DNA of 64,000 nt from Lytechinus pictus (GCF_037042905.1 NC_087245.1:25980001-26044000), one strand, 5' to 3'; counted from the first letter of the stretch, positions 7,113 through 60,190 are shown. Made by a program: numbers and translations. The notes: generated by a model from the letters alone, not told the origin.

Positions 7113-7143
<31 letters not shown>

Positions 7144-16100: not shown

Positions 16101-18320
16101 CCAAAATGTGCCATATTTGCGCTTACAATTGAGAAGCTTCATAAATCGTTCATGGGAATCAATATCAGAGATCGTAAAGAAAAGGTGCTTGATGCTTTAT
16201 CATTAGTTGTAGAATTAGGTTTTTTATGATTATTTTCTTCTTGTATCTAACCCAAAACCTTGGATTTTTGCATACACTATTTTTCAATCAAATATTCTGC
16301 ATTTCTTTGGGGTTAAATTGTGATTTGGTTTGTTTTGCCACCATTGTTTCCATCAATTTTATTATTTTAATGTCTGAATTGATTTGATAATATTTACTGT
16401 TATGAGTACTTACATCATCTACTGCATTGACGTCTATCTTTTCCCTTTCACCGTTGCCAATCGGTATCCCTTGCCAGTTGAGGATGAGACGAAGACACTC
16501 TGCTCTTTTCTTCTCAGGGGGTTGAGAGTAATAGTACTGTGAATAGCTGGACGTAGATGATGGAGGGCGGGGTAGATCACTCATGCATACACAATGTAGA
16601 GATGTTTGGTTGCTCATGTTACGCTTAATAGGGCTTCCATTATGCTTCTGAAGAAACAATCTAAAAATTAAAAGCACAGACAAATTTGTAGTAATATAAT
16701 CATTCTCAAAAGTTCAAAATGAATTACATGCACATTGAATTATTTGTGAAATTGTTACGAAGTTGATATATTAAAATATTTCAGATTCAAACTGGATGGA
16801 ATTTTTGGGATTGGTTTATGGTTTGCAGATCAGGGACCCGTTTCATAAAGACTTAGTCATTATGGCTACTACCATGGCAACAGGTCTCAGCAGCCAATCA
16901 AAATCAAGGTTAACATGGTAGTTGTCATAATGGCGAAGTTACAACAGTTGTAACTCATTATGAAGTGGGCCATAAATATACAAGACCTGGCACAAGAAGT
17001 AACCCGTTGTACTGCAGTAGAGTACATGAAGTAAAAACAAACAGGATGTCATGTTCTGTTTGGTGAAATAAAAACAAAATGTGTAATACTGTACAAGATT
17101 GTAATGTGATCTGAAACTGTTTTCAATTTACATTACTAACAATATCTCTCCTGAAAAGCCTGTGAAACTACCAAACCTCATTCTCACCAGTGTCAATAAC
17201 TCAACCGATGATCCTGTGAAACTACCCATTCCCATTGTTGGCAATAATAACAATAATTGTATTTGCTTTTATAGATAGCACCTAAAACTTTTAGAAGTCT
17301 ACTAATGCTCTAATAATGCAGCATAATTACCCTGGCTTCAGCAGAGCAGCTGTTATGCTCTCAGCGTTTCAAGGAATATATTCTGGGGCCCGTAACACAA
17401 AACCTAGCAATGATTGTAGGACATTTTTCTACGATTGGTTCCATTGACAACACTCTACAATTCATCGTGGAGCATATGATCAATCGCTATTACCTTTGTA
17501 TTACGGACCCAGGACAGGTACCCAATTTACCTGAGCTGGGTTGAATTCAGCACATTATGGAGAAATTTATTGCTGAAGAACACTGACACCTGCAGGGCCC
17601 CATTGCATAAAGTTACTATTATACATGTAGTAACTTTGTTATTTAATGGTAACTGCCATGGTAACAACGTCAATTAGCCAATCAGAATAAAGGATTTCAG
17701 GGAAGTTAACATTAGATGGCAATGTTACTATAGTAGTAAACCTTTAAGCAACAGGGACCAGGAGTAGGGTTTGAAACAACGACCCTCTGATTAGGAGACT
17801 GAGGTCAGAACCACTACACCATGACACCTCCATACCCATTCACACTCTTCGCAATAATGGGTCGTGTGGTCCAGTGGTTAGAGCATTGGACTCAGAATCA
17901 CAAGGTTGTGAGTTCGAATCCCAATTCTGCCATTGTCTCCACTTTGATAAAAGGCCAGAGAGTGATATCTGTCGTCTATTAACGTCAGCCACTATGACTG
18001 ATTAACCAAGCCGTAAAAGGTTTCCTTGGTAATTGGTTATATACCAGCTTGTCGTTTACCAGCAAAATGCTGTCCTGTTGAGTTCCTATGGGAGTTACTA
18101 TAAACAGACAAAACAGAAACAGAATAACTCACCTGACAAGTCTGTGCATTCCATGTCTACATGAACAGTGAAGAGCCGTATTATGATCATAGTTCTCTCC
18201 ATAGGAGATGTTCGGATCAAACGTCTTTTGAAAGTCTTGGCTATGATGGTAAATTTCCTCAGCTGTTTTCTCATCCCCCGAATGGAGGGCTTTCCGAAAC
18301 TTGGACGAACTGCTTCCCAT
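412..18320 (-). CDS. ANKIB1: Ankyrin repeat and IBR domain-containing protein 1 (RBR E3 ubiquitin ligase), spliced CDS of 18 exons; 856 aa if the TAG at 412-414 is used, otherwise continues beyond the window start
   Basis: 18 GT-AG exons join in frame (2571 nt incl. stop): [12 protein letters not shown] start, ankyrin repeats, [22 protein letters not shown]1 ([14 protein letters not shown]), IBR ([22 protein letters not shown]), RING2 ([23 protein letters not shown]), Ariadne region, UIM-like helices. Confidence 0.95.
1100..1238 (-). CDS. ANKIB1: ANKIB1 coding exon 17 (UIM-like helix)
   Basis: 139 nt, [22 protein letters not shown]...; AAG acceptor, GTATGT donor. Confidence 0.8.
1250..1366. 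repeat. (AAT)n-like microsatellite next to the exon 17 acceptor
   Basis: Degenerate AAT/GAT/CAT triplets. Confidence 0.9.
1540..1779 (-). CDS. ANKIB1: ANKIB1 coding exon 16
   Basis: 240 nt, [30 protein letters not shown]...DDDSADE; donor GTAGGC. Confidence 0.9.
2587..2726 (-). CDS. ANKIB1: ANKIB1 coding exon 15 (Ariadne domain)
   Basis: 140 nt, [34 protein letters not shown]...IFEFMQ. Confidence 0.94.
3628..3784 (-). CDS. ANKIB1: ANKIB1 coding exon 14 (Ariadne domain)
   Basis: 157 nt, [35 protein letters not shown]. Confidence 0.94.
4114..4248 (-). CDS. ANKIB1: ANKIB1 coding exon 13 (RING2 end)
   Basis: 135 nt, [32 protein letters not shown]. Confidence 0.95.
4292..4718. mobile_element. 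MITE with 14-bp TIR and 6-bp TSD
   Basis: CAGACCTGCCAACC...GGTTGGCAGGTCTG flanked by AATATG on both sides. Confidence 0.85.
5504..5634 (-). CDS. ANKIB1: ANKIB1 coding exon 12 (RING2, catalytic Cys motif)
   Basis: 131 nt, [34 protein letters not shown]. Confidence 0.95.
6217..7192 (-). mobile_element. Helentron-associated / DINE-1-like non-autonomous element, family 1, with ~160-bp internal tandem array
   Basis: Subterminal IR GTCTCACCTGCAT (6239) / ATGCAGGTGAGAC (7175), terminal hairpin, (GCC)n tract, TGACCTTTGACC units spaced 162, 163 and 192 bp, T-rich ends, no TSD. Confidence 0.8.
7435..7523 (-). CDS. ANKIB1: ANKIB1 coding exon 11 (IBR end)
   Basis: 89 nt, [29 protein letters not shown]. 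Confidence 0.93.
8359..8572. mobile_element. Short GG/CC-ended MITE (Harbinger-like; similar elements at ~9870-10020, 16832-16972, 33220-33376, 34730-34947)
   Basis: GGCCCGTATTCTGAAG/CTTCAGAATGCAGGCC imperfect TIR. Confidence 0.6.
8655..8827 (-). CDS. ANKIB1: ANKIB1 coding exon 10 (IBR)
   Basis: 173 nt, [21 protein letters not shown]...[10 protein letters not shown]; donor GTCAGT. Confidence 0.94.
10046..10190 (-). CDS. ANKIB1: ANKIB1 coding exon 9 (RING1 C-half)
   Basis: 145 nt, [26 protein letters not shown]...FLQFDIK. Confidence 0.94.
10642..10730 (-). CDS. ANKIB1: ANKIB1 coding exon 8 (RING1 N-half)
   Basis: 89 nt, [29 protein letters not shown]. Confidence 0.94.
11381..11550 (-). CDS. 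ANKIB1: ANKIB1 coding exon 7
   Basis: 170 nt, [24 protein letters not shown]...EDETE; TAG/GTAAAC. Confidence 0.92.
12153..12270 (-). CDS. ANKIB1: ANKIB1 coding exon 6
   Basis: 118 nt, [39 protein letters not shown]. Confidence 0.93.
12795..13378. mobile_element. Kolobok-like non-autonomous element with long TIRs
   Basis: TTAA flanks, AGGAGAATGAAAC/GTTTCATTCTCCT ends, inverted arms of ~180 bp. Confidence 0.8.
13872..13925 (-). CDS. ANKIB1: ANKIB1 coding exon 5
   Basis: 54 nt, [21 protein letters not shown] acceptor, GTAAGT donor, phase 0/0. Confidence 0.8.
14525..14650 (-). CDS. ANKIB1: ANKIB1 coding exon 4
   Basis: 126 nt, [25 protein letters not shown]...[17 protein letters not shown]. 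Confidence 0.93.
15863..15919 (-). CDS. ANKIB1: ANKIB1 coding exon 3 (ankyrin TALHYAA)
   Basis: 57 nt, [27 protein letters not shown] boundaries; frame differs from the ORF track. Confidence 0.92.
16414..16660 (-). CDS. ANKIB1: ANKIB1 coding exon 2 (ankyrin)
   Basis: TTTTAG acceptor, [25 protein letters not shown]...IDVNAVDD, donor GTAAGT; 247 nt, phase fits. Confidence 0.92.
17245..17830 (-). mobile_element. Family-B SINE interrupted by two short MITEs (~17385-17511 and ~17594-17760)
   Basis: SINE B segments resume after GGGCCCGTAACACAAA/TTTGTATTACGGACCC and GGGCCCCATTGC/GCAACAGGGACC inserts. Confidence 0.6.
17859..18124 (+). mobile_element. tRNA-derived SINE, family A
   Basis: A box TGGTCCAGTGG, B box GTTCGAATCC, (ACAGAA)n tail; close copy at 40307. 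Confidence 0.88.
18133..18320 (-). CDS. ANKIB1: ANKIB1 coding exon 1 (start codon; 188 nt)
   Basis: ATG at 18320, [20 protein letters not shown]...[16 protein letters not shown]; donor GTGAG at 18132. Confidence 0.93.
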
Positions 18321-19362
18321 TTTGAAGGCGCACAATGTAGTCTTTATTCAATCCTTTTTTTATAAATGGTTCCAATGACTGCTCAAATATGACACCAGCG
18401 TTCACAGAAGCAAATCTATAAAGAAATATGACCCCATTTCTCTTCTAAGAAGAAGTTGCTTGGTAGTTACATGTACCAACACAATATTGTTCATGATAAT
18501 ATAACACTGACACAGTGTCCAAGATATCCAGTGTTCTCTTCTTTATTGATTTCTGTTTGGAATTCAAATAAATTCATATCCAGGTACTTATTTTATTTCA
18601 GTCAGGAGAAAAGGAAAGACACAAGACTGCCACCAATGTCTAAATTAAGTAAAGACATCAATAGCTTACAGTTGATAATAACCATGCTCATCACCACATG
18701 TATTTCCCTTGACTCCTTGATCAGTCCTACAGTATGTCTTTCAAATGTTCCTGAACTTCTCTAATGTCAACAGCACACTTCCTTAATCCATTAAATAAGT
18801 GACATCACTTGATAGGGTAGTGGCTACCTTCTTCGTTAAAGATGAGGGCATCAGTCGAGGGAACCCTCAGAATTGACTTCCTGTTGGGGTTGGCCTGCTA
18901 ATCATCATCTCCAAATACAGGGTATCTTGAATGAGGCCGCAGAATACGCGACAGGTCATTGTTTCACTCTATTCTATTCTGCAAGATCTCATTTCGAATA
19001 AGAGCTCATTACGAACAAGAGCCCTTGACAAACCTGATTATCGCTCAAGTACTATCAAGTTTGCTCTAAAAGGTATTAAAAATCACCTTCATCATGGGAA
19101 TAAACTAGAAACATGCATCAGTCATCCTATAGCTATGCAGGTACTTCATATGGAGGTCTGAACTGCTGGACTTGCTACAATGTTTTGGACCCCCTATAGG
19201 AAGATCATCTTAACTTTCTTTACCAAGACATGTACAGGATACATGTAGTTGGTTGACACTGAATGGATGTACATATTCTGATCACATCTTGTAGAATCCA
19301 AAAGCCAGTTGCTCACAATAGAATTCCAGGAGTCCCATGTTTAACTCATCAATGCACCATCA
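18321..19362 (-). other. Putative ANKIB1 5' UTR sequence upstream of the start codon (two candidate acceptors: 19362 and 18415)
   Basis: Strong acceptor CTTTTTTTTCTTTTTGTTGCAG ending at 19363; second acceptor TTTCTTTATAG ending at 18416; sequence between looks repeat-free. Confidence 0.5.
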
Positions 19363-20543
19363 CTGCAACAAAAAGAAAAAAAAGACATCTTTAGATTCAA
19401 ATTAAACTCTATTCTACATCTACATGTACATGTGCAAAATGACATTAATATTATTCGAATGCATGTACAAAATGCAAACTGAGTTTTCAGTCGTGCAAAG
19501 CACAGAATAGTATACAAATACTAGTAGGCATGTATGTACGGTACATGTACATGTATTCAAAGAAATCATGAGTGTGGGCCTATGCATGCTACGTTACATT
19601 ATGCTTAAATTATAAATTCTCAATTATAGTGATTTCAATGTTTTCATTGCATTCTCAATTTAGAAAAAAGAAATAGTTAATGACTAGCTACATGTACATG
19701 TATGTATACAAAACAAGAAATATTATTCAGAAGTGGGACAACTACTGCATTTGAATTAAAAGAACAGTACACTTTCATATTTCTTTATAATACATGTACA
19801 TGTAGGGCCTACTGCTTCCATTCAGGACTTTAAAAAATTCCAAAAGGCGAAAAGGGTAACGAAAAGGAGACACGGTACATGTACCTCTATATGGGAACTG
19901 AGACTGCTGCTAAGGACACAGGGGAATATTATCATTTAGTCATACAAGAACATGTAACTGAAAGGAAGGAGAAGAGGGCTGATTCATATTGATACAACTC
20001 AAAAAACGCAATGGCCTCCGGCAAAACTCCTAAATCACCTGAACAATACATATGTCTCACGGACGTACTTGTGCATACTGGTACTATTTTATAATGAATG
20101 TGTCACAAAATGTCATAATATCAAATTCACAGGGGATCTGGTTAGATTGCTAGTCTATTTTAATAGGCATGATGAATGTCTTTTACTTTTAGAATAGAGA
20201 AGGGAGACAGGAACAAACACTAAAGACGAAGGAGGAGGGGGAGGAGAAGGGGGAGGAGAAGGGGGAGGAGACGTACATGTAGGAGCTAAAAGGGTTAATA
20301 AAAGGGGAGAAAGGCCAGGGAAGATAATGATCATGTAATGATGATGATGATGATGAAGATACATGTATGATGAAGGAGAAAAAAAAGAACACCCCCCCCC
20401 CCCCCCCGGCCCTAGTAATTTAAAAGTAAAGTAAACAGAATCATCAAAATTTAAGTCCTAACCATGATGCCTACATACAGTAATGTCCATGTAATGTACA
20501 TGTATATGTACATGTACATGGAGGTCTGTACATGGACATTTTC

Positions 20544-21037
20544 TTTGTTGTAAAACCTGTGTGCATGTGTGCAGTGCATGTGTACATACTGCTGGGTATG
20601 TAATGACAATTAATTCTTTGGACTGTGCTCAGTGTGCTGAGTCACCGTAGAGCTATAACAAATTAATATCATCATTTGTCTCTACTTGTCAATAATTCAT
20701 TTCCCAATTCATACAGGTACATCACATACATGATGTACATCACACTTATCCCCAAAGATTATGTCAGATTTCTATCATAGCAATTTTTGTTGTAAAACCT
20801 GTGTGCATGTGTGCAGTGCATGTGTACATACTGCTGGGTATGTAATGACAATTAATTCTTTGGACTGTGCTCAGTGTGCTGAGTCACCGTAGAGCTATAA
20901 CAAATTAATATCATCATTTGTCTCTACTTGTCAATAATTCATTTCCCAATTCATACAGGTACATGTACATCACATACATGATGTACATCACACTTATCCC
21001 CAAAGATTATGTCAGATTTCTATCATAGCAATTTTTG
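20544..21037. repeat. Recent 242-bp tandem duplication
   Basis: 20544-20785 repeated at 20786-21033, identical except a 6-bp gain in copy 2; TTTG microhomology at the junction. Confidence 0.95.
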
Positions 21038-21534
21038 AACTGGTAAATGAAAATTCCATGTTTTCCCTGTAAAGACTACGGTCTACTGGGTGTACTGTAC
21101 AGTGTGTGACTTGGTTCAAGTATTGGAGATTAAGAACCTCTCATTGCTATGGCCCCTCATCAGAAAGGGGGAGAATTTCAGTAAAATCGGATGGAAAACA
21201 AATTGTTTTGTGAGATTTCAAGAATCAAAGTGAAGTTCTTCTGTACTGCAAGTTTGAATAAAAATCAGATGAAAAATGAGGCTGGTATCTGAGCACATAC
21301 ATGTACAGGCCTACTATTACTATGTCATTTTAAAAGTCTGATTGAGAACAATTATGACAAATTTTGAACAATGAATAATCTACTGTATCAAGAAATGTAG
21401 CTGATAATGTCCAGGTTACCAAAAATATTTGCCTTTATTTTTCCTGCTTTTAAAAACCAACCTACAATGTTCTGTATGTATGTATGTATGTATTGTCAAG
21501 GTGAACTTTCTCAAAAGGGAGAGTTAACACAAAG

Positions 21535-21730
21535 TATAATAATAATAATAATGATAATAATAATAATAATAATAAAACAATAATAATACTAATAATAATG
21601 ATAATAATAATGATAATAATAATAATAATAGTAATAATAATAATGATAATGATAATAATGATGATGACGATGATGACGATGACGTTGATGATGATGATGA
21701 TGATGATGATAAAAAATGATAATAATAACC
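21535..21730. repeat. (TAA)n/(TGA)n compound microsatellite
   Basis: Direct reading. Confidence 0.92.
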
Positions 21731-22199
21731 AATTAAAGAAATGCAATATTGATATAGGTTTGACGAAAATATAAATGAAGTTGTGAATTTGTCACATTTT
21801 AGATTTGGGACATCAAATTTATGCAAGCAGATAGAAGCAATTTCCCTCATAGTAGGCCTAATGTCTATTATATTAATATTCTAAAGAAAAAACATCAAAA
21901 TGGTTAAATCTATTGAGTCTCATCAGTCACATCAATTCATGAATGCTTCAATAAGACAAATATTTTCAATGATCATTACTGGGTAAACAATTTTTTTTTA
22001 AACATGGGGGAACTGCTCAAATATGACATCACAAATTCATAACAATATTATGATGGTTTTTGCAAAGCCCCTCACTAATATTTTACTCTATTACATTCTA
22101 CTTTCATTGAACCCTCACCAATTTTTATAACTTAAGTTACCTGCTTTATTGAAACCAATAAATCAGGATAAACTAATCCTTTAAAAGTACAGTATAATT

Positions 22200-22485
22200 T
22201 AATAATAATGTGTTCTATTTGTATAGTGCAGCTACTACTCTACTGCGCTTGATACATGGTATTATATATTACCCTGGCTGTAGCTGAGCCACCGTATAGA
22301 CACTATTTGCATTCAAGGAATAAATCCTATCGGGTACCCATTCTGCCATCACCTCACCTGGGTCGAGTGCAGCACAATATGGGTAAATTTCTTGTTGAAG
22401 GAAAACACACCATGGCTGGGATTCAAACCCATGTCCCTCTGATTGAAAGACGAGATTCGTAACCACTAGACCACGATGACCCCAC
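22200..22485 (-). mobile_element. tRNA-derived SINE, family B
   Basis: Minus strand TGGTCTAGTGG...GGTTTGAATCC head, CTCGACCCAGGTG...ATGGGTACC core, (TTA)n tail. Confidence 0.75.
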
Positions 22486-24769
22486 TGGAAACTTCTACCA
22501 GTGTATTTTAAAATGTGGTTTTCCTTCTCTCTTGATTTCTCTTTGCATGCATGCACAGTTTAAGTTCATAAAGGTTGACATTAATTGATGCCAGATGGAT
22601 CAAGTTCAATGGAGAGTAAACAAAGCTCACTCGAAATAAATGTACAGAGAAAATTAGATTTACACTGGATTCTAACTAGGGTGGGGATGTAGAATTCTCC
22701 ACGCTATTGCCAGATGTTAAAAATTACGAGAGTACATGTGCAGTCCAATGTATTGACAAATTTTTAAATGCTACATGTATGCTTAATAAAATTCCAACAT
22801 GGATGTCTTGGAAGCTCCCCATGTACATGTAGGCTCAGGGAATTCCTGTTTGACCCAGTAGAAAAATGAGTCAAAACATTTGAGGGGTCCAGAAATGGCA
22901 AATAGGGTGAATTTTCTTCAATTTAAAGCTTCCAGTGAGTGAAGCAAGTGAGCAAAAATTTTGTTGTTTTTTTCATATATATATATTGACATAAAATTCA
23001 GAAAATAGTACATCTTTCAGATTTTTTTTATTTCCGTTTTCTTTTTTTTTTGGCCTTGGTCATGAAAATTTGTGAGGAGGGTGGTCCATTGCCCCCCCCC
23101 CCCCCACCTGTACATGTACACAACTGATTTAACCTAAAAGTGAACAACCATTACGACAGCAGCTGAGACTGTGATTTTGATTATGAATCCTGAACAACAA
23201 ACTGTTGTCTAAAAGTTATCTAATTCCCCCTATGATGACATACTGTCAGATCTGCCAAGTCTTATCTATTTATATCTCCATTCAACAGATAAAATTAAAA
23301 TTGTAAAGATTATATACAATGTACATGTATTACCTACGGTACATGTCGGACAGAAGATCTCGTAGGAATTAACTCTCATATAGACAGTGTCCTTTCAGTG
23401 AGTGTGACAATAAAATGTAATTCTGATTTTCCCAAATAGAGCATACTCTACATCTATTGTAGGCCTACTGCTCTTCAGTGGATTTAAATCAAAAGGTTTC
23501 AGATCATCTCACACCCATGGACACATGTACACGTTCCTGTACACCTGTACACACTGAAGTTCTGATCTACTGTCAAGAAATTTCTAATGGATCAACTCAA
23601 GAAATGATTATGTCAGGCCCTAATCACTAAAAATGTTCATTAAGTGGCGTAAAGATCTTACCATATGCACATGTACATGCACTTGTAAGCAAGAGGCTGA
23701 GGGATACATGTGCAAGCCATATGGTATGCTGAGTAATACATAAGATGCAATACCGTACAGTGTATTATAATGGTTCATTTCTCATAGGCAAGTTCAGGTT
23801 CATGTACATGTACTTGAAGGTTAAGAATGTGATGGAGGTCATGGTTCATTTTAACATTCATAAAATATATTAGCAGTCAGACCTTATCAATGTCAATGAT
23901 GCCTAAGGGCCCTTTTATCAAGCTGTTCATAATACAGTAAGTTACAAACAAAAAAATCGCATTCGACTTTACACTCCACTGCCGACCCGTTCTTGCACTA
24001 AAATGAGATACATGTACAAGATTTTACTTGACTTAATGATTTTTCGTATCCCCCCAAAAAATAGAAATAATGAATGAATAAAAAAAAATAAACAAATAAA
24101 TAAATAATATATAAGTAAATGAACAAATTTATAAATTAATTAATCGATTAAATAAATAAATACATTTGACAAGATAAAAAAATAAATAATGAATAATTGA
24201 ATGAATGAATGAATGAATGAGTGAGTGAGAAAGAGAGTGAGTGAATGAATGAATAAATGAATGAATAATAAATAATTAAATAAATAGTGAATGTCACTAA
24301 ATTATACATGTTCATGAAGTAAAGGCCATCCAAGCAAAGTTGGGGGAGGGGGGGTTCTGTCACCGTTAAACCACTCTTTCTTGTCCATTTCAATCAAAAT
24401 TTCTTGTCCATAATTGATATAGTGCGACAATATCCCCCCCCCCCATGTATTTCAATTCCACATTTCATACCCATGTTTGTTAAACATCTCTAGTTCTGCG
24501 ACCAAATTTTTCATTATTCAAAATCACTCAAGCATGACCATCTAGATGGTAAATTTCAGGTCTATTTGCATACCATTTGTTACTCTTTCCGTTATCCTAC
24601 AACAAACTATCTAGACTGGCTACTCGGTAGAAATGCTCTGGCACATAGCTGGAAACAGTCATTAATAGTCACATATTTGCTCTTTAATTCAAGGGGAACT
24701 TTGGGCTTAGATATGTTGGTCAATTTTTTTTTTTTTGAAGTATTGTAAGAAATAAATGAATCACTAATA

Positions 24770-25035
24770 AATAATAATAATATGCAACACTATAGCACTT
24801 AATAAAATAGTGCTGTGCACATACTATTACCCCGGCTTTAGCACGGCTACCCTGATTGGGTGCTCGAGCATTCAAGGAATTCCTTTCTACGGGGTACCCA
24901 TTTACTACACCTGGGTCGAGAGTGGCAAATGTAGATAAACACCTTGCCAAAAGACGCAAGTGCCATGGTGGGATTCAAACCCCGGACCTTGTGGTTCAAA
25001 GTTTAGAGGCTTATCCACTGTGCCACAACACCTCT
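24770..25035 (-). mobile_element. tRNA-derived SINE, family B
   Basis: Same ACCTGGGTCGAG / GGGTACCCATT core and tRNA-like head. Confidence 0.75.
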
Positions 25036-26495
25036 AATGATCAAGAACTATAAAAGTGCAGTTTATTAATGCACTTTCTCAACAAAGGTACACATGTACA
25101 AATCTAAGCATGATAACAATCTAAAATCAAGGTAAGTTTAGAGAAAATTGGGGGATACGTTTTTACCTCACATTAATCAGTAAAGCAATCATGTATTTAT
25201 AGGAAAGTGTTTATGTTTGAAAAGAGCACTACTGATTTGGAAGAGAACAATTATAGAACTAGGCCCATATACTTTCCAAGTAATGACGATATTTCAAAAA
25301 CTTAACCTTTGGTTAAGATTTGATGTTGACAACACCGACACTGCCGCCGCCGCTTGATTTTAGGTCAGCAGGCTTAGTTCACAACCTTCACAACGGGAGA
25401 GTGAAATTATTAGATCGATCTCAGTACTACCACCGCGCAACACCAAACCAGTGATGCTTGCATGGGAGCCGGCGGTAGCCGCGCGCAGTCTGTTCAGGAA
25501 CTAGCCGATAAGCCAATTCTGCTTAAATTAGAGCTAGCCGATCTAGATGTTGTCCAGATCAAGGAGATGGGCCAATTAGAAGTAGATTACCAACATCGGA
25601 ACCAACATTTTTCGTTCAAACTTTAATATGGAAGGGATATAAAACAAATATACCGGGCGTTTCTTTCAAAAGTGTAGTGGAAATATTTTATCCTCGATTG
25701 GTCCGGCAATGCAACTGCATGTATTTTCCCTCGGGTTAATTGCTGAACCAACCTCGGCTAAAAATATTTCCAAGTACTTTCTCATACCCAGTATGTATAC
25801 TACATGTATATGAGTTATAATAGAAAATGTTGATCCAGATTTTAAATAGACCCAATGTAAATTTTTGGAAAATGTCAGTTTTTGCTTGTAATTGCCCTTT
25901 TAGTTTCAAAGTCAAGGTAGGCCTACCATTTCAAAACTTAACATTGCCTAAGATTTCAAAGTTGATATCACAACACAGTCAAAGTTCATTGACCCTAATG
26001 AACTTTGATAATCATGTACCGGTAACCTAAAACTCAAGCAGTACTACATATAGGATCACTGATCAGTGATAGCAGTATTAATTATGCTTTTCTTAGACCC
26101 TCTAACATTTCAAACAAGGTGGTTCAAGAACCATGAGTCTCGCCTGATTTTGTGATCAATATGCAATAGGATCTTTTTATCCTGGATGACCTTTGACCTT
26201 ATCATCCTCATGAACAGACCAGTGAATACATGTAGAGTAGAAATGGTTTATTGAAAAAAATATAAATCATTTGCGGTCCAAAGGTCGAATTACAGATTTT
26301 CATACATACACTGTCATGTAAAACCAAATACATCACAATGAAAAACGAAATAATGAAAAGCGGAAATGAAAATACATGTATAATATCAAAGAACATTTAT
26401 GATCACATGCATTGATCAGGAGCCAGAGGTAAATGATACATGTATGTATACATGTACTTATGATGACAATCTATCACCACTGTACCATAATATAA

Positions 26496-26877
26496 CAGGG
26501 TGCTACATAACTTTTTAGAAGCGCTTGCCCAGTCGGGCAAGTAAATTTTTAAATAGTTGGAATATACTTGCCCAAAAATCTCTTTCACTTGCCCAAAAAA
26601 ATCCTTGAAAAAAAAGTTATAAACCATTGACCTTTTTCTCTTTTCCAAAGTGATTCTATCTTGCCTGCCATGACCAAAATTAGGGTCAATATCTTATCAT
26701 ATCATATCGACACTAATTTTGGTCATTCTACCGTGAGAATTTTGCTTTCTACTGTGTGAATTTCGTTTGCCCAATTCGGGCAAGTAGTTTTGGTCTTTAC
26801 TTCAAAACACTTGCCCAACTCTAACTTTTACTTACCCCGGGCAATCGGGCAAGTGCTTACATGTATGTAGCACCCTA
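26496..26877. mobile_element. hAT-like MITE
   Basis: TIR CAGGGTGCTACATA/TATGTAGCACCCTA, perfect 8-bp TSD TAATATAA, subterminal CTTGCCC/GGGCAAG repeats. Confidence 0.88.
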
Positions 26878-27479
26878 TAATATAATGATGTATAAGTATA
26901 TAATGAAGTATAATCATTTTAATGACCATTTATAAGATTTTCATTGTCATCATTACTATCAATATCATATTACTATTATTTTTATCATTCACATTATCAT
27001 TATTATCCAAAAATTAACTATTGCACATAAAGAAGCATTCACGCTTTAAAAAACACTTATAATCGAAAAATAAAAGGAGATTTTCTATCATAAGTTACCA
27101 ATAAATGCACTGATTACAATCATGTAGGTAATTTGAACTTGTATCAACTGACAAAATAAGGCTATGATTCTGCAGAATTGCTCACATTGAAATAATAATT
27201 GTAAAAAGGTATTTGGTATATTATCAAGATAATTTAAATTCCGAAAGGCTTACTAATTTTTCTCAAAACATTAAGTGACACACACATTAATTGATATACA
27301 TATTAGAGCAATTGGCAAAAGTATGTTAATGCAGTTGTTATGAACATGAAAAACATTAAATAACATCTCAACATCTAAAAGCAAATTAGGACTGAGCTGT
27401 AAAAAAATACATGTAAACATCGTGCACATTTGTACACTTATTGAGCACTTAGTATAGTGGCATTAACCAATTATAATTT

Positions 27480-28435
27480 GTACAAAGTTTATACGCAATT
27501 GATATAGAAATTTTAAAAAATGAGAGCAAGTTGAACAAAAAATTGAAAAAATTGACAAAATCTCACATTAGACCTTTTGACTCTTAGATAACTTTGACCC
27601 TATCATCCTCAACTACATGTACACATATATGTGGTATTACCCAAGGATCATTTGTACCAAGTGTAAACACGTTGATGCAGAAATAATTTGATATAAAGAA
27701 ATGAGACTAACACTAAAAAGGATGGACATGACCTCATATCACTTGACCTTTTACCTCATCATTCTCAATCTCAATCGACACACATGTGGTGGTATTATCC
27801 AAGGATCATACAGTGTATGTACCAAGTGTGAACATATTTGATGCAAAAAGGAATGAGAGCAAGTTGAACAAATACTTCAAATAAGGATGGACATGACCTC
27901 ATATCCTTTGACTTTTTGACCCCTAGATGACCTTTGACCCATCATCCTCATTAACACACATGAGGTACACTGTATTACCCAAGGACCATATCTATGTACC
28001 AAGTATGAACATAAGTGATGCAGAAATAAAGAATGAGAGCAAGTTGAACAAAAACTTTAATACTTTTGTAACAGACCAGGATAAGTGATCACTAATGACT
28101 AGGTCTCTGCCGAACTTCGTTCCGGTGAAAACTTAACCTTGGTTAAAACTTTGACGTTGATACCCAAAACTTGATCAGTTTGCTAACCCGAAATGACCTT
28201 TGACCTAGGTCATGTTAACCTGAAACTCATGCAAGTGATACATGATAGACCTACTTTACCCTAAGTTATCAATGTCCAAGACAAGTTTCATGAACTAGGT
28301 CCAACCATAGGCTATAGGCCTACTTTCTAATGATGACATTTCAAAAACTTAACCTTGGTTCTCAATGTTGATAATGCCACCGTCGGAAAAGCGGCGCCTA
28401 CATGTATAGAGAATCACTCTACAGCAGACAAAAAA
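27480..28435 (-). mobile_element. Degenerate family-1-related element with tandem units (further fragments at ~25250-25355 and ~25925-26040)
   Basis: GTCGGAAAAGCGGCGCCTA end motif, TGACCTTTGACC units, CAAAAACTTAACCTT. Confidence 0.65.
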
Positions 28436-28749
28436 ATGTAAGAAATCAAGCTACAGTATCTAATACTAGGCAGTAGACCGTACCAGTTTACATCAGAAAG
28501 AGGATGGGTTTAGAAAGTTGGGGGATTAAGTTAGTAACACAGTCTAACGTTCAACTGTGTAGTGTGTAGACAAGTGTAACAACATTAAAATTTAACTATT
28601 TACGATACACATAGGATGAGGATATTTATTAAAATAAATTTAGAGAGCTAGACAAATCTAATTGACACTGAACTTTAATTTTAAACCATGAACTGATAAT
28701 GTGTAACTTTGTTTGAAATAACATTAACAAGCATATCAAATTAGACTAA

Positions 28750-29030
28750 CCTCAGCCTCGGCTCGAAATGGAAAATCGGCGTGTTTATAGAGATAATCGT
28801 TAAACGGCATTTACCCACGTTCATGTAAGTACCGGTATCCAAAATTTCAGATAACTTCCCTGTAGAAACAGACACGATGCAGTTTATTGATAAACCGCAT
28901 TGCGCAAAATACAGTTTCTCATAACCGCCTCTGGGAGGTGGTTATTGCCGTGTTGACGCCGTATTTGCGACGCGGAATGTGAGTTAATAGAATTATTCGC
29001 TCTGTATACCCAGTTGTTGTACGTCCGGAC
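28750..29030 (-). promoter_or_regulatory. CpG-rich putative promoter of ANKIB1
   Basis: Cluster of CpGs (TTGCGCAA, GACGCCG, GCGACGCGG) at the upstream edge of the CpG-depleted gene body. Confidence 0.5.
28751..28920 (-). other. Putative non-coding first exon of ANKIB1 (5' boundary approximate)
   Basis: Donor GAG/GTTAGT at 28751/28750 exactly where CpG-depleted DNA switches to CpG-rich DNA. Confidence 0.55.
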
Positions 29031-29303
29031 GATCAATTTTAGAAAGTCATTTTGAAAAATTTACAAGCGAAGTTTCATCAATTTTTAGTACAAAATGTTA
29101 GGAAATATTATAATAGAGAACAAAACAGATTATTTCAGTCCGCAATAATGAACCTATTTAGTAAAAAAGAAGATGATTACAACTATTGAATTCATATTTT
29201 TAGTGTAATCCAAAGACAAAAAAGAAGGTTTCAAAAATATAAAGTGTCCGGACACCCGACCCCCCATCCTACTACAGACTGTAGGAACAGGTTGGGTGGT
29301 CAA

Positions 29304-30640
29304 TAGAGGCGCACGGCCAATATGGGAGACTCTCTCCAATACAGGAGATGATCTCCCATATTTATTCGAGACTTGCTTTGCAAAAGAACAAAAGAAACAC
29401 CGACAAAAGCGGAATTTCTTCCACCCAAAATTTCGTCTCACTGAGGTCAGAAGCCCATTTGTTTTGTGTGTGGATGACAACAAAAATCCTTGTCAAAACA
29501 AAAACAGACGGTGAATTTTTTAAAGTAGACGGTGAAAAGAGGAACTTGTTCATCAGGAATCTGCTTTCATTTGCCGCCAAGGTAATTGTTTTGCAGCAAA
29601 TGTAAACAAAGGAAATTGGTCTCCCACACTGGAGACCGTCTCTAAAATTGGATACCCAAATTCTTTACAACAGTCTCTGATATTGGAGATAATTTGATTT
29701 GATTGATTTGATTTGATTTATTGATTTCCGTTTCACAATTGTACATAATTATCATAAGGTCAAAAATACTGCAAGACATAATAAAATATAACATAATATT
29801 AGATTTAAGGAACACAATTCAATAAATAAAGTTACCTAAGATGACATTTGCATTTAAAAGTAAAACGAAGGGTCTTGCCGAAAAAGGCAAAGCTTGTACA
29901 AAAGGCAAGCCCCTAACTTAGTTTCATTACAAAATTACATGTACAACAAAAAAATATTGGGTCGTAGTGATATATAGAACTTTTTTTAAAAAATGAATAC
30001 AAACAATTTTGTCCACTTTACCAAAAAGTAACTGATGGATTGTGTGAGAAATATTTTTTTTATAACATTAGGGAGAGAGGGGTGGGGTGAGGGTGAGAAG
30101 AGGGAAGGGACAGAGAAGTGCAGTGTACATTACATACATGTAGAAAGAAAGCGGGCAGCAGGAGCAGGTACTTTGGCTAGTTGCAATTTTAAGAAGAAAA
30201 AAGTAATAACAAATAATATACACGAGTATACCCAGTTGTTGTGAGTCCGGACAATCAATTTTAGAAAGTCATTTGGAAATATTATAGAGAACAAAATAGA
30301 AGATGATTACATCCACTGAATTCATATTTTTAGTGTAATCCAAAGACAAAAAAGAAGGCTTCAAAAATATAAAGACAAGTGTCCGGACACATGACCCCCC
30401 ATCGATTGCTTATATTATAATACACAAAAGCCGAGTAGGCTTAATTAAAATCACTTATTCAGCTTGACCTGTTTGCAACGAATATTACAAAATTAATTTT
30501 TTTTCAGTTTGCATCTAAAAATATTAATTATCAGGGGATTCTTTAAAATCTTGAGGCAGAGAGTTCCAGTACTCAGTAGGCAGGCCTCTCTCATGGGAGA
30601 CAGTCTCCCATATTGCCAATTGTTTGGCCATGTGCCTCTA
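29304..30640. mobile_element. Possible TIR element
   Basis: TAGAGGCGCACGGCCA / TGGCCATGTGCCTCTA ends with subterminal GGAGAC/GTCTCC repeats; no TSD found. Confidence 0.45.
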
Positions 30641-51922: not shown

Positions 51923-52482
51923 AGGTTAAGTTCACCGCAGGAAAATTCTGATTTGAATCGATAGAGAAAAATCAAACAAGAATAATGCTGAAAATGTTAT
52001 CAAATTTTGATGTAAAATAAGAAAGTTATGACATTTTAAAGTTTCGCTTATTTTTCACAAAACAGTTATATGCACAACTCAGCAACATGCAATTGAGAGA
52101 GTCGATGATGTCCCTCAATTACTATTTCTTTGTTTGTTAATGTTTGAATTATACAATATTTAAATTTTTACAGATTTGATAAGGACCAGCTTGACTGAAC
52201 CATAAAATGTTAAAATATTTGCAATTCCCCATGTTCATTGAGGAAGAAAACTTGTTTCACCTTCCATTGAGGAGAAAATTAGAATATTTCATATAATACA
52301 GTAAAATACAAAAGAAATAGTGAGTGACGTCATCAGTCCCCTCATTTGTACTGACCAGGATACTTGTGCATGTAACTTTCCTATTTTACATCTGATTTTG
52401 ATGAAATTTTCAGTGTTATGTCTGTTTACATTAATCTCTTTTTGTTCAAATCAACTTTTTTTTGTTGGGGTGGACTTGTCCT
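51923..52482. mobile_element. Kolobok-like non-autonomous element (related fragment at ~43770-43930)
   Basis: AGGTTAAGTTCACC/GGTGGACTTGTCCT ends, ATAA/TTAA flanks. Confidence 0.65.
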
Positions 52483-53410
52483 TTAAATTGACATCTTCAA
52501 GATACATTTGCAGACCTGTAACATGTACTGAGAATGTTTTCTTGAAGTTCATCTGAACTCAGATAATTTTGAACATCTATTGCAGTGCACCATTGTAGGC
52601 CTACTGTCAAGTGATATGCATTGATATTCACTATTTGAATATTATTATCAAGTGAATTGAATTCTACTTGAATTAATTTTGGTGCTATAGTAGATCTTTT
52701 GTATAGTTACAGAAAAAAAAATAATGAAGACCAGCAGAAAGCTTTTGGGATTAATGAAGAAAAGAAGACCTCATTTGCAAGAACCTGCTTAGAATTGTAT
52801 AGCACAATTTCTGTATTCAATCTGTACATAATACACGTGTATACCAAATGAATAGAAAAAAAAACGATCATAACTCTGTTCCACCAATGTGATATATAGT
52901 GTATGAATTAACATGTTTTCTCTCAAATGGCCTACTACATGTATATTGGGTATCAAAAAGCTTGTTAAAGTAAATACAGGTATTCCATGCACATTTTATT
53001 GTTGCATTGAGAGTGTACACAAGGAGAAAATAAGTAGTTTTTCTAGGAAAAAATATTTGCTATGACATAGTTGTTGTTGTTGTTGTTGTTATGACATAGT
53101 TCATTTTCCAGCTGACGTCACGTACATGTATACTTATTACTATATCCCATTTTGTATAGGTTTTTCCACCCCATACGCGCACTATGCTAAAGATATGTAC
53201 ATTGCCGTGCATGGCAGCTCAAGCAATTATTAAAGCCATTGTGCGAATCTGACTGGGTGCACCTACATGTAGCCTATGTGTGTGGGGGGGGGGGGGGGTT
53301 TGATGAAATTTTTCATATAAAGTTACTAGCCTTTTTTCTTTCTATTTTATTTATTTTTTATTTTTTGATGTGATGAGGAATGATAGGGGTGGAAGAAAGA
53401 CATGTATTGA

Positions 53411-53998
53411 AGGGATGGTCAAGACTGAAAATATTTATATCTAAATAAATAGAGTAAAATTCACCTGTAGAGCAAAGTGCTGAAAATTTCATCAATGAAG
53501 TTATTGAATTTTAAAGTTTGTAAATATTTTGTGAAAACGTTTATAGTCATGAATATTCATTAGGTGGGCTGATGATGTCACATCCCCACTTTTCTTTTTC
53601 TTATGTTATTATATGAAATCATAAATGTTTCATTTTTTCATACATGTGTAAATAATGTGTCTCCATTATGATGATATAAGTTGCGGCAATAAATAACTAA
53701 TGCACTTTAATCAGTTGTCAATCCAATTGTTTTAGTTCTTGGTAGAACATTTTTTAATAAACCTAATTTCATAAAATAAAATGCAAAAGAACAAGTGGGG
53801 ATATGACATCATCAGCCCACCTAATGAATATTCATAAAGACATGCCTAGAACTATTTCACCGGAATAATGCAAATCTTTAAAATTCAATAACTTTGTTAT
53901 TTGTTATCCGATTTTGATCAAATTTTCATCATTTTGCTCTGTATATATATTTTACTCTATTTATTGAGATAGAAATATCTCCAGCCCGGACCATCCCT
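53411..53998. mobile_element. Kolobok-like palindromic element, copy 1
   Basis: AGGGATG/CATCCCT ends, TTGA/TTAA flanks, long inverted arms; homologous to 59570-60190. Confidence 0.78.
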
Positions 53999-54306
53999 TT
54001 AAAGGGGGAGTGAACTGTGTGTGGTCTCTCAATGACTGTGTGTTATAAATATTTACATAGTCTTAAAATATAAATTTCTCAGACATGTACATGTACATGT
54101 ACAAAATACAGAATACATTGACCTATAATTGTATTTGTGTAGAGAAACAAAAATGTTTTGAGAGGAAAAGTTATTGTTTTGCTACTTGGTAACATAATTA
54201 TTGCAGTATAAATGTAATGAGTACTTAATAGCATGTTATCATTCAAGTGGATCTATATTACTAGACTACACTAGCATTATGGGTCAGGAAACTGGCCTGG
54301 GTGGTG

Positions 54307-55991
54307 TTTTTGTCTCACCTGCATAGCAGAGTGAGACTATAGGCGCCGCTTTTCCGACGGCGGCGTCAACACCAAATCTTAATCTAAGGTTAAGTTTTTG
54401 AAATGACAGCATAACTTAGAAAAAAGGATATGGACCTAGTTCATGAAACTTGGTTATAAGGTTGATCAAGTATTACTGAATATCCTGCCTGAGTTTCAGG
54501 TCACATGACCAAGGTCAAAGGTCATTTTTAGGCCATTTTAGGGTCAATGAACTTAGACCATGTTGGGGAGAATCAACATCAAAATCTTAACCTAAGGTTA
54601 AGTTTTTGAAATGTCATCATAACTTAGAAAATATATGAACCTACATGTAGTTCATCAAACTTAGACATAAGGTTAATCAAGTATTACTGAACATCCTGCT
54701 TGAGTTTCATGTCACATGACCAAGGTCAAAGGTCATTTAGGGTCAATGTACTTTGGCCAAATTGGAGGTATCTGTTGAATTACGATCATAACTTTGAATG
54801 TTTATGGAGCTGATTCATGAAACTTAGACATAAGAGTAATCAAGTATCACTGAACATCCTGTGCAAGTTTCAGGTCACATGATTAAGGTCAAAGGTCATT
54901 TAAGGTCACTGAACTTTGGCTAAGTTGGGGGTACATGTATTTGTTGAATTACCATCATAACTTTGAAAGTTTATTGGTCTAGTTCATAAAACTTGGACAT
55001 AAGAGTAATCAATATCACTGAACATCTTGTGCAAGTTTCAGGTCACATGAGTAAGGTCGAAGGCCATTTTTTAAGGTCAATGAACTTTGGCCAAGTTGGG
55101 GGTATTTGTTGAATTACCATCATAACTTTGAAAGTTTATTGGTCTAGTTCATAAAACTTGGACATAAGAGTAATCAAGTATCACTGAACATCCTGTGTGT
55201 ATTTCAGGTCACATGACCAAGGTCAAAGGTCAATGAACTTTGGCCATAATGGGGGTATCTGTTGAATTACCATCATAACTTTGATAGTTTATGGATCTGA
55301 TTCATGACATTTGGACATAAGAGTAATCAAGTATCACTGAACATCCTGTGCAAGTTTCAGGTCACATGATCAAGGTCAATGAACTTTGGCCAAGTTGGGG
55401 GTATATTTGTTGAATTTATTACCATCATATAACTTTGAAAGTTTATTGGTCTAGTTCATAAAACGTGGACATGAGAGTAATCAAGTATTACTGAACATCC
55501 TGTGCAAATTTCAGGTCACATGACAAAGGTCAAAGGTCAATGAACTTTGGCTAGGTGGGGGGGGGGGTATCTGTTGAATTACCATCATAACTTTGAAAGG
55601 TTATGGATCTGATTCATGAAACTTGGACATAAGAGTAATCAAGTATCTTTGAACATTTCGTCCGAGTTTCAGGTCACATGACCAAAGTCAAAGGTCATTT
55701 AAGGTCATTGAACTTTGGCCATTTTAGAGGTAATTATTAGATTGCTGTCATAACTTTCAAAGTTTATAGATATAGTGTATAAAATGTGGATATAGGGGTA
55801 ATCAAGTTTCACTGACAAGTTTTAGGTCACATGATCAAGGTCAAATGTCAATGAACGTACATGTAGTACTGTATCATTATATGAATGGTGTTTTTTGTGA
55901 ATAATTATTTGATAGTAGTTTTCAAAGTCAGCACTGCTGCTATATTGAATCGCGTGATGCAGGTGAGACCGCCAGAGGCATTCCACTTATT
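54307..55991 (+). mobile_element. Helentron-associated / DINE-1-like element, family 1, second copy with ~10 tandem units
   Basis: Ends near-identical to the reverse complement of 6217-7192; longer internal array. Confidence 0.82.
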
Positions 55992-56840
55992 CATAAAGCT
56001 GTTCGTAAAGTTACGCACAGCTACATTGTATATGCACGACTGGAACCTGTTCTTAGGCAAAGTCATTCGTAACTTACAAACAGCTTTATGAAATGGGCTC
56101 CAGGTATGAGTAGTACTACATGTAGTTGAGGACTCAAGGTGGCACTATTGGTTCGTATACAATGTAGATCTGCTTTAAAACAAATTCTCAGAACAGGCTA
56201 AAACTATTCACACATCAAAACCCTCAGGCTATTGGCCCTCGGGATAAGGGTTTCCTTCGATGTGAATAGTTTTAGCCAGATCCTCGAGCGTCATAGTATA
56301 ATACATTGTATTCTGTATATTATGAAGTGTATCAATGCCACTTTGCTCAATAGCAATGCAGTATTAATATCCAAATCTAAATAATCAGTATTCTCAGATT
56401 TCCAGAAATAATCAGTAATAAATTCCTGAAGATCAGGTATGTGTGTTAAAACTTAAAACATACTTTTGACTTTAAGTACTTGATGCTGAAATATGTTCCG
56501 GTTCTATGATTATAAGCCAAATAACCAATACAATTGTTTGTTACACATAGTCATTAAAAAAAATCAATAAATCAGGCTGTATTCTTGTATTTCTATGCTT
56601 TACTTTCCTTGGCTTGGGTACACCAGAATAATTTTCCACAAAATCCATCTTGGTAAAACAGACCAGAAGTGATGAATGCAACTTTCACACACTTTATAAA
56701 CTGCACCTACATAATGTACAGTGTACATTGGGCACCTTTTTGTATAACATGTTTTGTGAAGACATACTGTACATTTTATAACAGAACAATTTTGAGCAAC
56801 TCTTTTCTACCATTTCATTCTTTCATAAATACTATGTGTT

Positions 56841-58646
56841 TTTTTGCTTATCCAGCCCAAATGGATGAGCCTATATGCCGTGGCGTGGCGTCCGTCATCT
56901 GTCGTCCATCCACAATTTCAAAATGCTTCTTCTTCATTTCAAGTCCGACTTTAATTCTGTTTGCTTTTGTGATAGCACTAGATGGGGGGATTCAAAATTT
57001 CTACACATAATTTTGTAACTCATTAAATATGCTAATTTATGCGCATTTTTCAAAATTCACAAATAATGCTTCTTTATTTGTTTACCGATTTTGATTTTTT
57101 CTGGTAGAGCTTCATGAGGTTCACCAAACTTTCACACAGAATTTTTAAATTATGCCTAGAAATTTTTTAATGCTAATTTATGCAAAATTAATTTATGCTT
57201 TAATATTTTTCCAAATTCACATAAAATGCTTATTCTTTATTTCTTGACCAATTTTGATTATTTTTCATCCATCTGGTAGAGGGTCACCAAACTTCCACAC
57301 AGAATTTTGAAATTTTGACAAGAAAATTATGCTAATTTATGCAAAATTTATTCATAAATCACAAAAATGTGTTTTCTTTTTACATGTAATTTGTTGATAA
57401 ATTTCAATGTTGTTTGCTTTATATGATAGCTCTACATGTAGGTGGGGATACAAAATTTCTCCACAGAATTTTGAAACTCATTGATTATGCTAATTTATGC
57501 ATATTTTTCAAAACTCACAAAAAATGCTCATTTATTTGTTGACAGATTTTGATTTTTTTTTTGTTCCATCTGAGAGCTACATGACTAACATGAGGTTCAC
57601 CAAGGTTCTACGCAGAATTGAGAAATTTTGACTAGAAAATTATTTATGCTTATTTATCACCAAGAAAGCTTCTTCTCTGTCATTTTTTCATCAATTTTAA
57701 TTCTTTTTCCTCAATTTATGTCACCAATATAATTCACTACAGCGTCAACTAGGGCTGTTATCGATAACCTCTTTATTGCTATTCTTGTCGATAATCGCTT
57801 GTTTTTTGCCACTTACATGTAGCGATATCGATAACCTTTCTCTCGTTGTCGATAGTACCTGCTATTATGTAGGGACATGACAGTGATTTTCTGCAATTTC
57901 ACAGAAACAGCCTTTTAAAAGTGGTTTTTCAAACGGAAAATGACGGAAAACATATTTTTCCTCAAAATGCACAGAACAGCAACAGAAATCACTCAAAATC
58001 TCAACAAAATACGAATATTTACTAGCCACAAAACACAATCTCACTTCGCTATAGGCCTAATCATGACAATCCAAACATCGTGACTGCACTCGACTCTATT
58101 CGATCGTATATCGAAAACATTCACAAGCGCAAGCTCAATTTAAGCGAAGTACCAACGTAGAAGGCAGCACATGGCCTTGTGTTGCTGCCCTCGACGTTCA
58201 AAGATATACAGCAAAATGGTGGATACATGTACATGTAGGTGAAAGATGTTGCCTGCTCAGATGTCCAAAAAGCCCCAAAATTATCGATAAAATTTCATCC
58301 AGCCCTAAAAATAATGCTAATAAAGTGAAAGGTGAGGTTGTATTCATGCTAAATATGTTTATTAAAAGATGTTGTTTACATCCGATGAAACGTTCTTGGT
58401 ACAGTGGCAGATACAAATTTTGACAAACGCGAGTAGTGTCATCGCTATAATGCATAAAAAAATGCGTATTGATTATGTTCTTTTGTCGATCGATATCGGT
58501 AAGATATTTTTAGCGATATATCGACAGAGAATTTTCTTAATGATAACAGCCCTACATGTAGTGTCAATTGGGCTGAAGTTAAAAATTGTGTTAAATTTGT
58601 TTGCGAGATGCTGGATGAGCTCCATATCAGTGATGTGCTCGTTTTT
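56841..58646 (+). mobile_element. DINE-1/Helentron-like element, family 2, interrupted by a MITE
   Basis: TTTTT-GCTTATCCAGC (56846) with 5' hairpin and CCGT-type tract, internal tandem units (TATGCTAATTTATGC), 3' GCTGGATGAGC (58610) + hairpin + TTTTT. Confidence 0.7.
57750..58554. mobile_element. hAT-like MITE nested in the family-2 element
   Basis: 13-bp TIR TAGGGCTGTTATC/GATAACAGCCCTA, subterminal ATCGAT repeats, degenerate 8-bp TSD GCGTCAAC/GTGTCAAT. Confidence 0.75.
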
Positions 58647-59569: not shown

Positions 59570-60190
59570 AGGGATACTCCGTGCTCAAGATATTTATATC
59601 TCAATAAATAGAGTAAAATTCACTGAGCAAAATGCCGAAAATTTGATTAAAATCGGATAACAAATAACAAAGTTATTTAATTTTAAGATTTGCATTATTC
59701 TGGTGAAACAGTTCTACATGTACATGTAGTCATGTCTTCATGAATATTCGTTAGGTGGACTGATGATGCCATATCCCCACTTGTTCTTTTTTATTTTATT
59801 ATATGAAATTAGTTTTATTCAATTTTTTTTACCAAGAACTACATGTAAGGATATTGGATTGAGAACTGATAAATTGCATAGTTATTTCTTGCTGCAATTT
59901 ATTTCATCATAATGGAGACTCATCATTTACACATACATGAAAAAATGAAACAATTATGATTTCAAAACATAAGAAAAAGGAAAGTGGGGATGTGACATCA
60001 TCAGCCCATGTAATAAATACTCATGAAGACATCATCTACATGTAGGACTGTTTCACAAGAATAATGCAAATTCTTAAAATTCAATATCTTCGTTATTTGT
60101 TATCCAATTTTGATCGAATTTTCAGCATTTTGCTCTGTGAATTTTACTCTATTTATTTAGATATAAATATCTTCAGCCCGGAACATCCCT
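59570..60190. mobile_element. Kolobok-like palindromic element, copy 2 (inverted relative to copy 1)
   Basis: Aligns to the reverse complement of 53411-53998; ends CATCCCT-TTAA. Confidence 0.78.

Follow-up and report, generated by a model that had tools for sequence, protein, structure and literature searches.

Short TA-flanked core words in a Lytechinus pictus locus as probable excision scars of several transposon groups

What wrote the short words of the form TA-core-TA that recur in the repeats of Lytechinus pictus, and does each core record a different transposon? We address this question in a 64,000-nucleotide stretch of that genome (GCF_037042905.1 NC_087245.1:25980001-26044000; hereafter the window, with positions counted from its first letter). 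An initial annotation of positions 25900..28430 had described the cores CAC/TG, CAG/TG, CC/GG and GG/CC as scars in one degenerate repeat, each joining bases from both ends of a different TA-targeting family. All the strings that it quoted are present (GGTATTACCC at 27633, TACACTGTA at 27966, TACAGTGTA at 27809, TACCGGTA at 26017, and TAGGCTA at 28308 followed by TAGGCCTA at 28315), and its counts of ten TAGGCCTA and four TACCGGTA in the window hold. However, the sites fall in two repeat families, here called A and B, and CAC/TG and CAG/TG, being reverse complements, are a single core. The same interval also contains words that had been overlooked, namely eight TACATGTA, a TAGGCCTA at 25918 and TAGACCTA at 28246. 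We consider it probable that the words represent a fixed core plus a second TA inserted at a TA, left as excision scars by cut-and-paste transposons that duplicate TA and belong to about three groups, with ends predicted to start with CA, CC and GG; the best reading of the scar type is that of the IS630-Tc1-mariner elements, mostly with two bases from each element end.

The argument starts from four observations: the over-representation of the words, the insertion character of CATG, CCGG and CACTG, the zones that the cores have in common, and a flank bias that is distinct for GGCC. Expected counts were derived from an order-2 Markov model and 136 four-base cores were compared, the window counts for Lytechinus pictus resting on 64 kb only. 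TACATGTA occurs 75 times against 3.75 expected, TAGGCCTA 10 times against 0.34 (p 4e-12), TACACTGTA/TACAGTGTA 8 times against 1.07, and TACCGGTA 4 times against 0.32 (p 3e-4, marginal after correction for 136 words). An excess of TAGGCCCTA (3 against 0.17) is lost after correction, and the canonical 3-base word TACAGTA/TACTGTA shows a weak rise window-wide (18 against 15). Simple repeats aside, the three most enriched four-base cores are palindromes (CATG, GGCC and CCGG), and TACATGTA, TAGGCCTA and TACCGGTA take ranks 1, 2 and 4 among the 256 palindromic 8-mers. Four-base cores that could come from one element end are scarce (CGAG 2, CAGT 3, CAGG 5, CCGT 0), and CGCG and GCGC, the overhangs of which would be able to anneal, are not raised (1 and 0). 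The four-base cores recur amid unrelated flanks; the core sequence is fixed and the flanks are not copied.

To assess insertion, the full version of each word and a version with the core removed were matched to homologous copies in the window, and a gap-free match round the site was required. The test took in every TA-N3-5-TA word outside satellite and microsatellite stretches, an exclusion that dropped one TACCGGTA and three TACGGTA sites. The empty version matched better at all nine testable CATG sites (of 75) and at the single testable site of each of CCGG (three examined), CACTG (of 8) and CAG (of 18), as against just 10 of 138 other TA-N3-5-TA words used as the control. The cleanest six-base gains are at 20960, 54642 and 54932, where the duplication is limited to TA. 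In an exact 242-bp tandem duplication at 20544-21037, a CATGTA at 20960 is the one difference between the copies, which points to gain or loss of a scar after a recent duplication. In keeping with footprints of the IS630-Tc1-mariner type, a duplicated TA surrounds the core and a single TA stands in the empty allele for CATG, CCGG and CACTG. The same holds for GGCC loosely in the window and cleanly in another organism, where +GGCCTA at a TA is the sole difference between two metagenome loci (L036 and L111). A flank-independent core of 2-4 bases is a further feature of such footprints, the five-base core being one base over the range given in the part of PMC6943129 consulted.

The features of the interval and its surroundings are as follows; strand is given only where it is defined.
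25905..26045, plus strand: decayed copy of family A, a family with tandem units of about 160 bp; better copies lie at 6217-7192 and, reversed, at 54310-55990.
25918..25925: TA-GGCC-TA, candidate GG/CC scar in family A; removal of GGCCTA changes the scores against four references from 69 to 79, 66 to 76, 31 to 33 and 29 to 29, without a control.
26017..26024: TA-CCGG-TA, candidate CC/GG scar, a six-base gain in family A; the empty version is better, gap-free, against 8 homologous places and the full version against 0.
26227..26456: four TACATGTA (26227, 26373, 26437, 26449) without a testable homologue.
26496..26877: short inverted-end element (CAGGG/TAGGG) with an 8-bp duplication TAATATAA, recognized by its sequence and inverted arms; it contains TACATGTA at 26858.
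27410..28075, plus strand: family B, three whole units and one partial unit of about 165-175 bp.
27614..27621: TACATGTA in unit B1, candidate CA/TG scar; the empty version is better against one homologue, weakly, with diverged flanks.
27809..27817: TA-CAGTG-TA in unit B2, an ambiguous candidate 3+2 scar, with seven extra bases against B1 but three plus a substitution against B3.
27966..27974: TA-CACTG-TA in unit B3, a seven-base gain where B1 and B2 have GGTATTA; it is the opposite-strand form of the core at 27809 and failed to enter the strict gap-free set.
28115..28425, plus strand: decayed copy of family A, including the 3' end motif of the element.
28246..28253: TAGACCTA, candidate decayed GG/CC scar; removal of six bases raises the score against 4 of 4 references and the empty version is better in a loose test, in a poor alignment.
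28308..28322: TA-GGC-TA followed by TA-GGCC-TA, two adjacent candidate GG-type scars where the consensus has TATA.
28399..28406: TACATGTA in the end motif of family A, an insertion at the TA of GCGCCTA, absent from the copies at 7159 and 54340.
28830..28837: a second nearby TACCGGTA, without a homologue for the test.

Several of these sites need comment. At 26017, the consensus of family A has TG, whereas the precursor must have had TA, as is found in the sister copy at 28209; a 3-base deletion lies immediately upstream. The roughly 15 extra bases of 28308-28322 consist of GGC+TA, GGCC+TA and 4 that are unexplained, and the score against the copy at 6860 rises from 86 to 96 when one word is removed and from 86 to 101 when both are. 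In general, removal of the GG-type words at 25918, 28246, 28308 and 28315 lifts the alignment score against most reference copies, a gain measured without a control, and any six-base removal from a longer copy could help. TAGACCTA was rejected as a general decayed scar because three of its four testable sites belong to the repeat consensus, and 28246 alone was retained. At 26858, the comparison of the two arms of the surrounding element, which we take to be of hAT type, is ambiguous.

Contigs of four public sequencing runs were also compared with 21780-30200. Contigs of all four leave out six letters at 30134, and a contig of run X9 covers 26278-26519 (242 window bases against 236) without substitutions and with 6 gap letters, the place of which is not listed; position 26496 is the end point of 134 contigs of run X3. 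No indel at the sites considered here is among the rows listed, which are 12 of 343 indel rows and 24 of 7295 loose ends and mostly represent paralogous repeats. In runs X3, X5 and X6, about one in ten of the sampled words is present, and uncovered stretches are uninformative.

How could excision produce such words? According to the parts of PMC6943129 and PMC8151067 consulted, Tc1/mariner transposase makes its cut in the non-transferred strand a few bases in from the element end, which creates 3' overhangs; once the ends have been joined, 2-4 terminal bases remain between two TAs. In the mechanism that we propose, an element would insert at a TA and duplicate it. On excision, the cut would fall 2-3 bases in from either end, so that both donor ends would carry 3' overhangs of element sequence. 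Overhangs of CA, CC or GG would be unable to pair with their own copy, and the host would join the ends and fill both gaps. The product would be TA, two left-end bases, two right-end bases and TA, with a palindromic core. We favor joined and filled 2-base overhangs because the top cores are palindromic, one-end words are rare, and CGCG and GCGC are not raised. CACTG/CAGTG would then be a rarer 3+2 product of the CA group, in which CAG...CTG and CAC...GTG ends yield one and the same word. A weak hint that this group may end in CAG comes from the 3-base words in the scar-rich zones described below, where TACAGTA/TACTGTA is found 13 times against 5.7 expected and TACACTA/TAGTGTA 4 times against 4.2. 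The CA group would resemble Tc1 or pogoR and the CC group Passer (CCG), while the GG group would be without a matching family.

The proposal that each core joins both ends of a different TA-targeting family survives in part. Insertion at TA is seen where it can be tested, the cores have the palindromic form, and families with matching CAG (echinoderm pogoR) and CCG (Passer) termini are published; for GG...CC, no family is found in the window or, for animals, among the catalogue rows compared. A number of four families is not supported, CAC/TG and CAG/TG being one core that, together with CATG, can be derived entirely from one CA-ended group.

The words are not spread evenly. Two zones, delimited post hoc from the positions of TACATGTA, were distinguished.
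17001..30200: scar-rich zone 1, with 34 TACATGTA, 4 TAGGCCTA, 2 TACCGGTA and 3 TACA(C/G)TGTA.
52001..64000: scar-rich zone 2, with 34 TACATGTA, 4 TAGGCCTA, 1 TACCGGTA and 3 TACA(C/G)TGTA, including the cleanest six-base sites at 54642 and 54932.

With 39% of the TA sites, the zones hold 68 of the 75 TACATGTA (about 2.7 CATG words per kb) and 17 of the 22 other core words (GGCC 8/10, CCGG 3/4, CACTG 6/8). The co-location of the non-CATG words with the zones is significant in a binomial test (p 3e-4) and against random TA sites (p 0.0025), but not in a circular-shift control (p 0.125). The family A copy at 54.3-56.0 kb carries three such words and the one at 6.2-7.2 kb has none. Eleven scar-word pairs are directly nested (19537, 19542, 19689, 19791, 23751, 53264, 54088, 58224, 59715, 61381 and 63030), seven of them CATG with CATG and four mixed, and the TA of one scar seems to have been reused as the target of the next.

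Common zones lead to the strongest alternative, in which a single process, of the host or derived from a transposase, would leave short palindromes where TA is broken in particular chromatin, mainly CATG and to a lesser extent GGCC and CCGG. The co-location just described, the direct nesting of different cores (as at 23751 and 61381) and the lack of any donor element seen in the window would all fit. We nevertheless regard it as unlikely: the cores are fixed and the flanks are not copied, the circular-shift control is not significant, and the ratio of the cores varies by organism, from 10 GGCC to 75 CATG here to near parity in the pre-selected metagenome loci. The flank biases of the two cores are also unlike. 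G adjoins the TA on 13 of 20 GGCC sides against 29 of 129 CATG sides (p 2.5e-4); for C the figures are 0 of 20 against 39 of 129 (p 0.002). The difference suggests different target preferences and more than one enzyme.

For the GG/CC core, which we suppose to come from a third group, we used a comparison set of 120 metagenome loci (349 kb), whose selection seed, GGCC+CATG, was subsequently masked. Even so, this selection biases the counts upward, and they have to be read with that in mind: TAGGCCTA 77 against 2.9 expected, TACATGTA 67 against 8.2, TAGGCTA/TAGCCTA 93 against 27, and TAGGCCCTA/TAGGGCCTA 14 against 1.2. The GG words among them make up a coherent series. The 3-base and 5-base relatives of the GG word would indicate GGC...GCC ends, and we infer that the three GG words may be the 2+2, 3+0 and 3+2 products of such predicted ends. 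One locus (L115, 264-347) contains a single-copy hairpin of about 80 bp that has GGC...GCC ends, lies between TAs in the context G-TA...TA-C and includes nested CATG and GGCC words; as a lead only, it is a possible mini-element of the missing GG group. CAC- or CAG-ended, TA-flanked elements occur in loci L050, L057 and L058, and a CACTGTG end is common to L004, L029 and L046. Other loci were rejected as donors, since the arms run beyond the TA (L001), belong to a longer repeat (L067) or reflect a repeated TTAGGTTC motif (L056).

Inverted-repeat elements in the window were likewise rejected as donors, their flanks being TTAA (12791-13382, 53407-54002) or 8-bp duplications (26496-26877, 57750-58555). 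The element at 57750-58555 resembles TA|GGG...CCC|TA and was considered as a GG donor, but TAGGG ends with an 8-bp duplication give the better reading. It is 801 bp long, with TAGGG...CCCTA ends and a decayed duplication GCGTCAAC / GTGTCAAT; between its right end and that duplication stands a CATGTA, a further clean TA scar. Three inverted-repeat elements, at 12791-13382, 51920-52485 and 53407-54002, end in AGG/AGGG, have TTAA-type flanks and are presumably Kolobok/T2-like. That TAGGCCTA is a remnant of hAT elements with TAGG...CCTA ends was also rejected, because inspection by eye found no 8-bp direct repeat round the 10 sites.

Several points weigh against excision scars of several transposon groups, in addition to the upward bias of the metagenome counts. 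The 64-kb window contains no TA-flanked inverted-repeat element with CA, CC or GG ends. With the strict filter, 0 of the 10 GGCC sites in the window were testable, CCGG and CACTG each depend on one strict site, and the empty version was better for 1 of 5 testable one-mismatch relatives. The G-flank bias of GGCC is missing in the loci of other organisms (46 of 152 sides), and zones common to all cores would be equally expected from one process. The eight Sleeping Beauty footprints given for mammalian cells in the part of bioRxiv 10.1101/659086 consulted do not include the 2+2 form, and there is no clear animal TA-duplicating GG-ended family among the rows compared in the catalogue of PMC7386202.

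The Sleeping Beauty list also bears on a second alternative, in which the scars come from one end (4+0): the cut lies four bases in, the first four bases are palindromic (CATG, GGCC or CCGG), and the overhangs anneal to give a uniform 6-bp scar. Its uniformity would be explained without unusual fill-in, and the missing 2+2 form would cease to be a difficulty. However, three unrelated families would all have to begin with a palindrome, 4+0 words from the usual published ends are scarce or absent in this sequence (CAGT 3, CAGG 5, CCGT 0), and the 5-base core (8 against 1.07) is left unexplained, so we judge this scar type, which we take to be Minos-like, improbable. Still poorer is the case for CATG as the only scar, in which the GGCC, CCGG and CACTG words would have arisen by chance in decayed repeats or would be palindromes under selection for protein binding. 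Testable sites are indeed few (GGCC 0, CCGG 1, CACTG 1), 27809 and 28308-28322 can be aligned otherwise, and TACCGGTA is marginal after the 136-word correction; but TAGGCCTA is found 10 times against 0.34, the words stand inside decaying repeat copies whose relatives are without them, and a clean +GGCCTA allele pair is known elsewhere (L036 and L111), which together make it very improbable. Finally, decay of CpG in TACGCGTA as the origin of TACATGTA is not favored, as TACGCGTA is seen once in the window, and CpG loss alone is insufficient for the zones, which are mostly CpG-poor, because 1-17 kb, mostly CpG-poor as well, has just 5 TACATGTA against 34 in 17001-30200.

Some observations on the surroundings may be added. 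The window is AT-rich (GC 0.30-0.39 per 2 kb) and of animal type, with introns, microsatellites and many repeat families. A minus-strand exon matches the Pfam IBR domain, and the gene at about 1-17 kb is, from its exon translations, presumably ANKIB1-like; relative to the coding exons of this minus-strand gene, zone 1 is on the 5' side. The better family A copies at 6217-7192 and 54310-55990 are related elements with tandem units of about 160 bp between short inverted motifs GTCTCACCTGCAT / ATGCAGGTGAGAC, and we assume them to be Helentron/HINE-like; a search for further copies matched neither viral nor metagenome contigs. An inverted-repeat element at 59564-60196 has TACATGTA at the matching TA of both arms (doubled at 59715, and at 60037), and the related copy at 53407-54002 is without them; this may reflect either repeated hits at a favored site or arm-to-arm conversion. 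An 8-bp GGATAC-based satellite, present in opposite orientations about 7.5 kb apart at 42100-43400 and 50590-50890, inflates some TA-N6-TA counts.

Excision footprints of this kind are textbook matter; the present case contributes the coexistence of several cores within the same repeats and zones, as well as a GG/CC core without a known animal donor that differs in its flanks from the CATG beside it. Excisions are normally invisible in a genome sequence. If each core marks a family, word counts would gauge the past activity, target preference and repair mode of each family even without surviving copies. If true, this would explain a large share of the small indels in these genomes and would call for caution in motif-finding studies over these palindromes. 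The main point of interest is the source of the GG/CC core. Taking the parts together, we offer tentatively, as a doubtful but possible extension, that the genome keeps a family-coded ledger of past transposition. End joining in these invertebrate germlines would retain both ends, and each scar would thereby name its family; GGCC would mark an undescribed, possibly locally extinct animal family that duplicates TA, has GGC...GCC ends and prefers GTAC; and all families would have hit the same stretches, one of them 5' of the coding exons of a gene.

How do the words compare with known systems? The somatic footprint of Tc1 in Caenorhabditis elegans is TACATGTA, with the same 2+2 logic. We know of no GG or CC counterpart to it. 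Our literature search, with subscription journals mostly outside its reach, gave no paper on these words as natural scars or on genome-wide footprint spectra. The parts consulted of PMC7325037, PMC9777934, PMC10379824 and PMC10045372 gave no GG-ended TA family, although their figures and most of their supplements could bear on it, as could Repbase and Dfam, and no Lytechinus row was found in the part of the PMC9777934 supplement consulted. In the catalogue of PMC7386202, the GG-ended rows compared covered 60 of 99 GGG places, 3 of 5 GGC, 3 of 12 GGT and 3 of 4 GGA. These rows are FotD or Fot-like. Their hosts are fungi, oomycetes, a red alga and Entamoeba, and they duplicate TAA or TAAA, apart from a single Entamoeba row with TA; another GGC entry belongs to a primate Tigger, the sequence of which is printed as starting with TACAG (PMC7386202). 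The Fot types are thus like the GGCC core in their GG ends and unlike it in their duplications, which do not fit a plain TA flank (PMC7386202).

Other groups fit less well. Sailor (DD82E) has GT or CC ends and a TATA target duplication in the part of PMC8533490 consulted, and CCGG was rejected as its footprint since none of the 4 TACCGGTA sites is flanked by TATA at both ends; at the GGCC words, just 2 of 20 sides have a T before the TA. The PHIS groups also use short or AT-rich targets, but their duplications as given in the part of PMC4482050 consulted (TWA, AT, ANT, CWG, TNA) do not fit a plain TA. The rows of PMC7386202 that were compared give CAG ends for three pogoR elements of echinoderms (TA/TA in two rows, one end only in the third), and Passer has CCG ends with TA/TA in a coral, related CCA/CCG ends being found in a fish and in bats. 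The three echinoderm rows are all pogoR, with no Passer among them, and the 64-kb window holds no copy of either. The ends and TA duplications of pogoR and Passer agree with the CA/TG and CC/GG cores (PMC7386202). A close parallel in form is provided by the footprints of Sleeping Beauty (TACAGTA/TACTGTA) and Tc3 (TACATA/TATGTA), as given in the parts of PMC6943129 and bioRxiv 10.1101/659086 consulted. Unlike them, the words of the window keep both ends (2+2, some 3+2) and are natural, dense and of several cores; like them, they would be fixed products of end joining, with 2-4 terminal bases of an element between two TAs.

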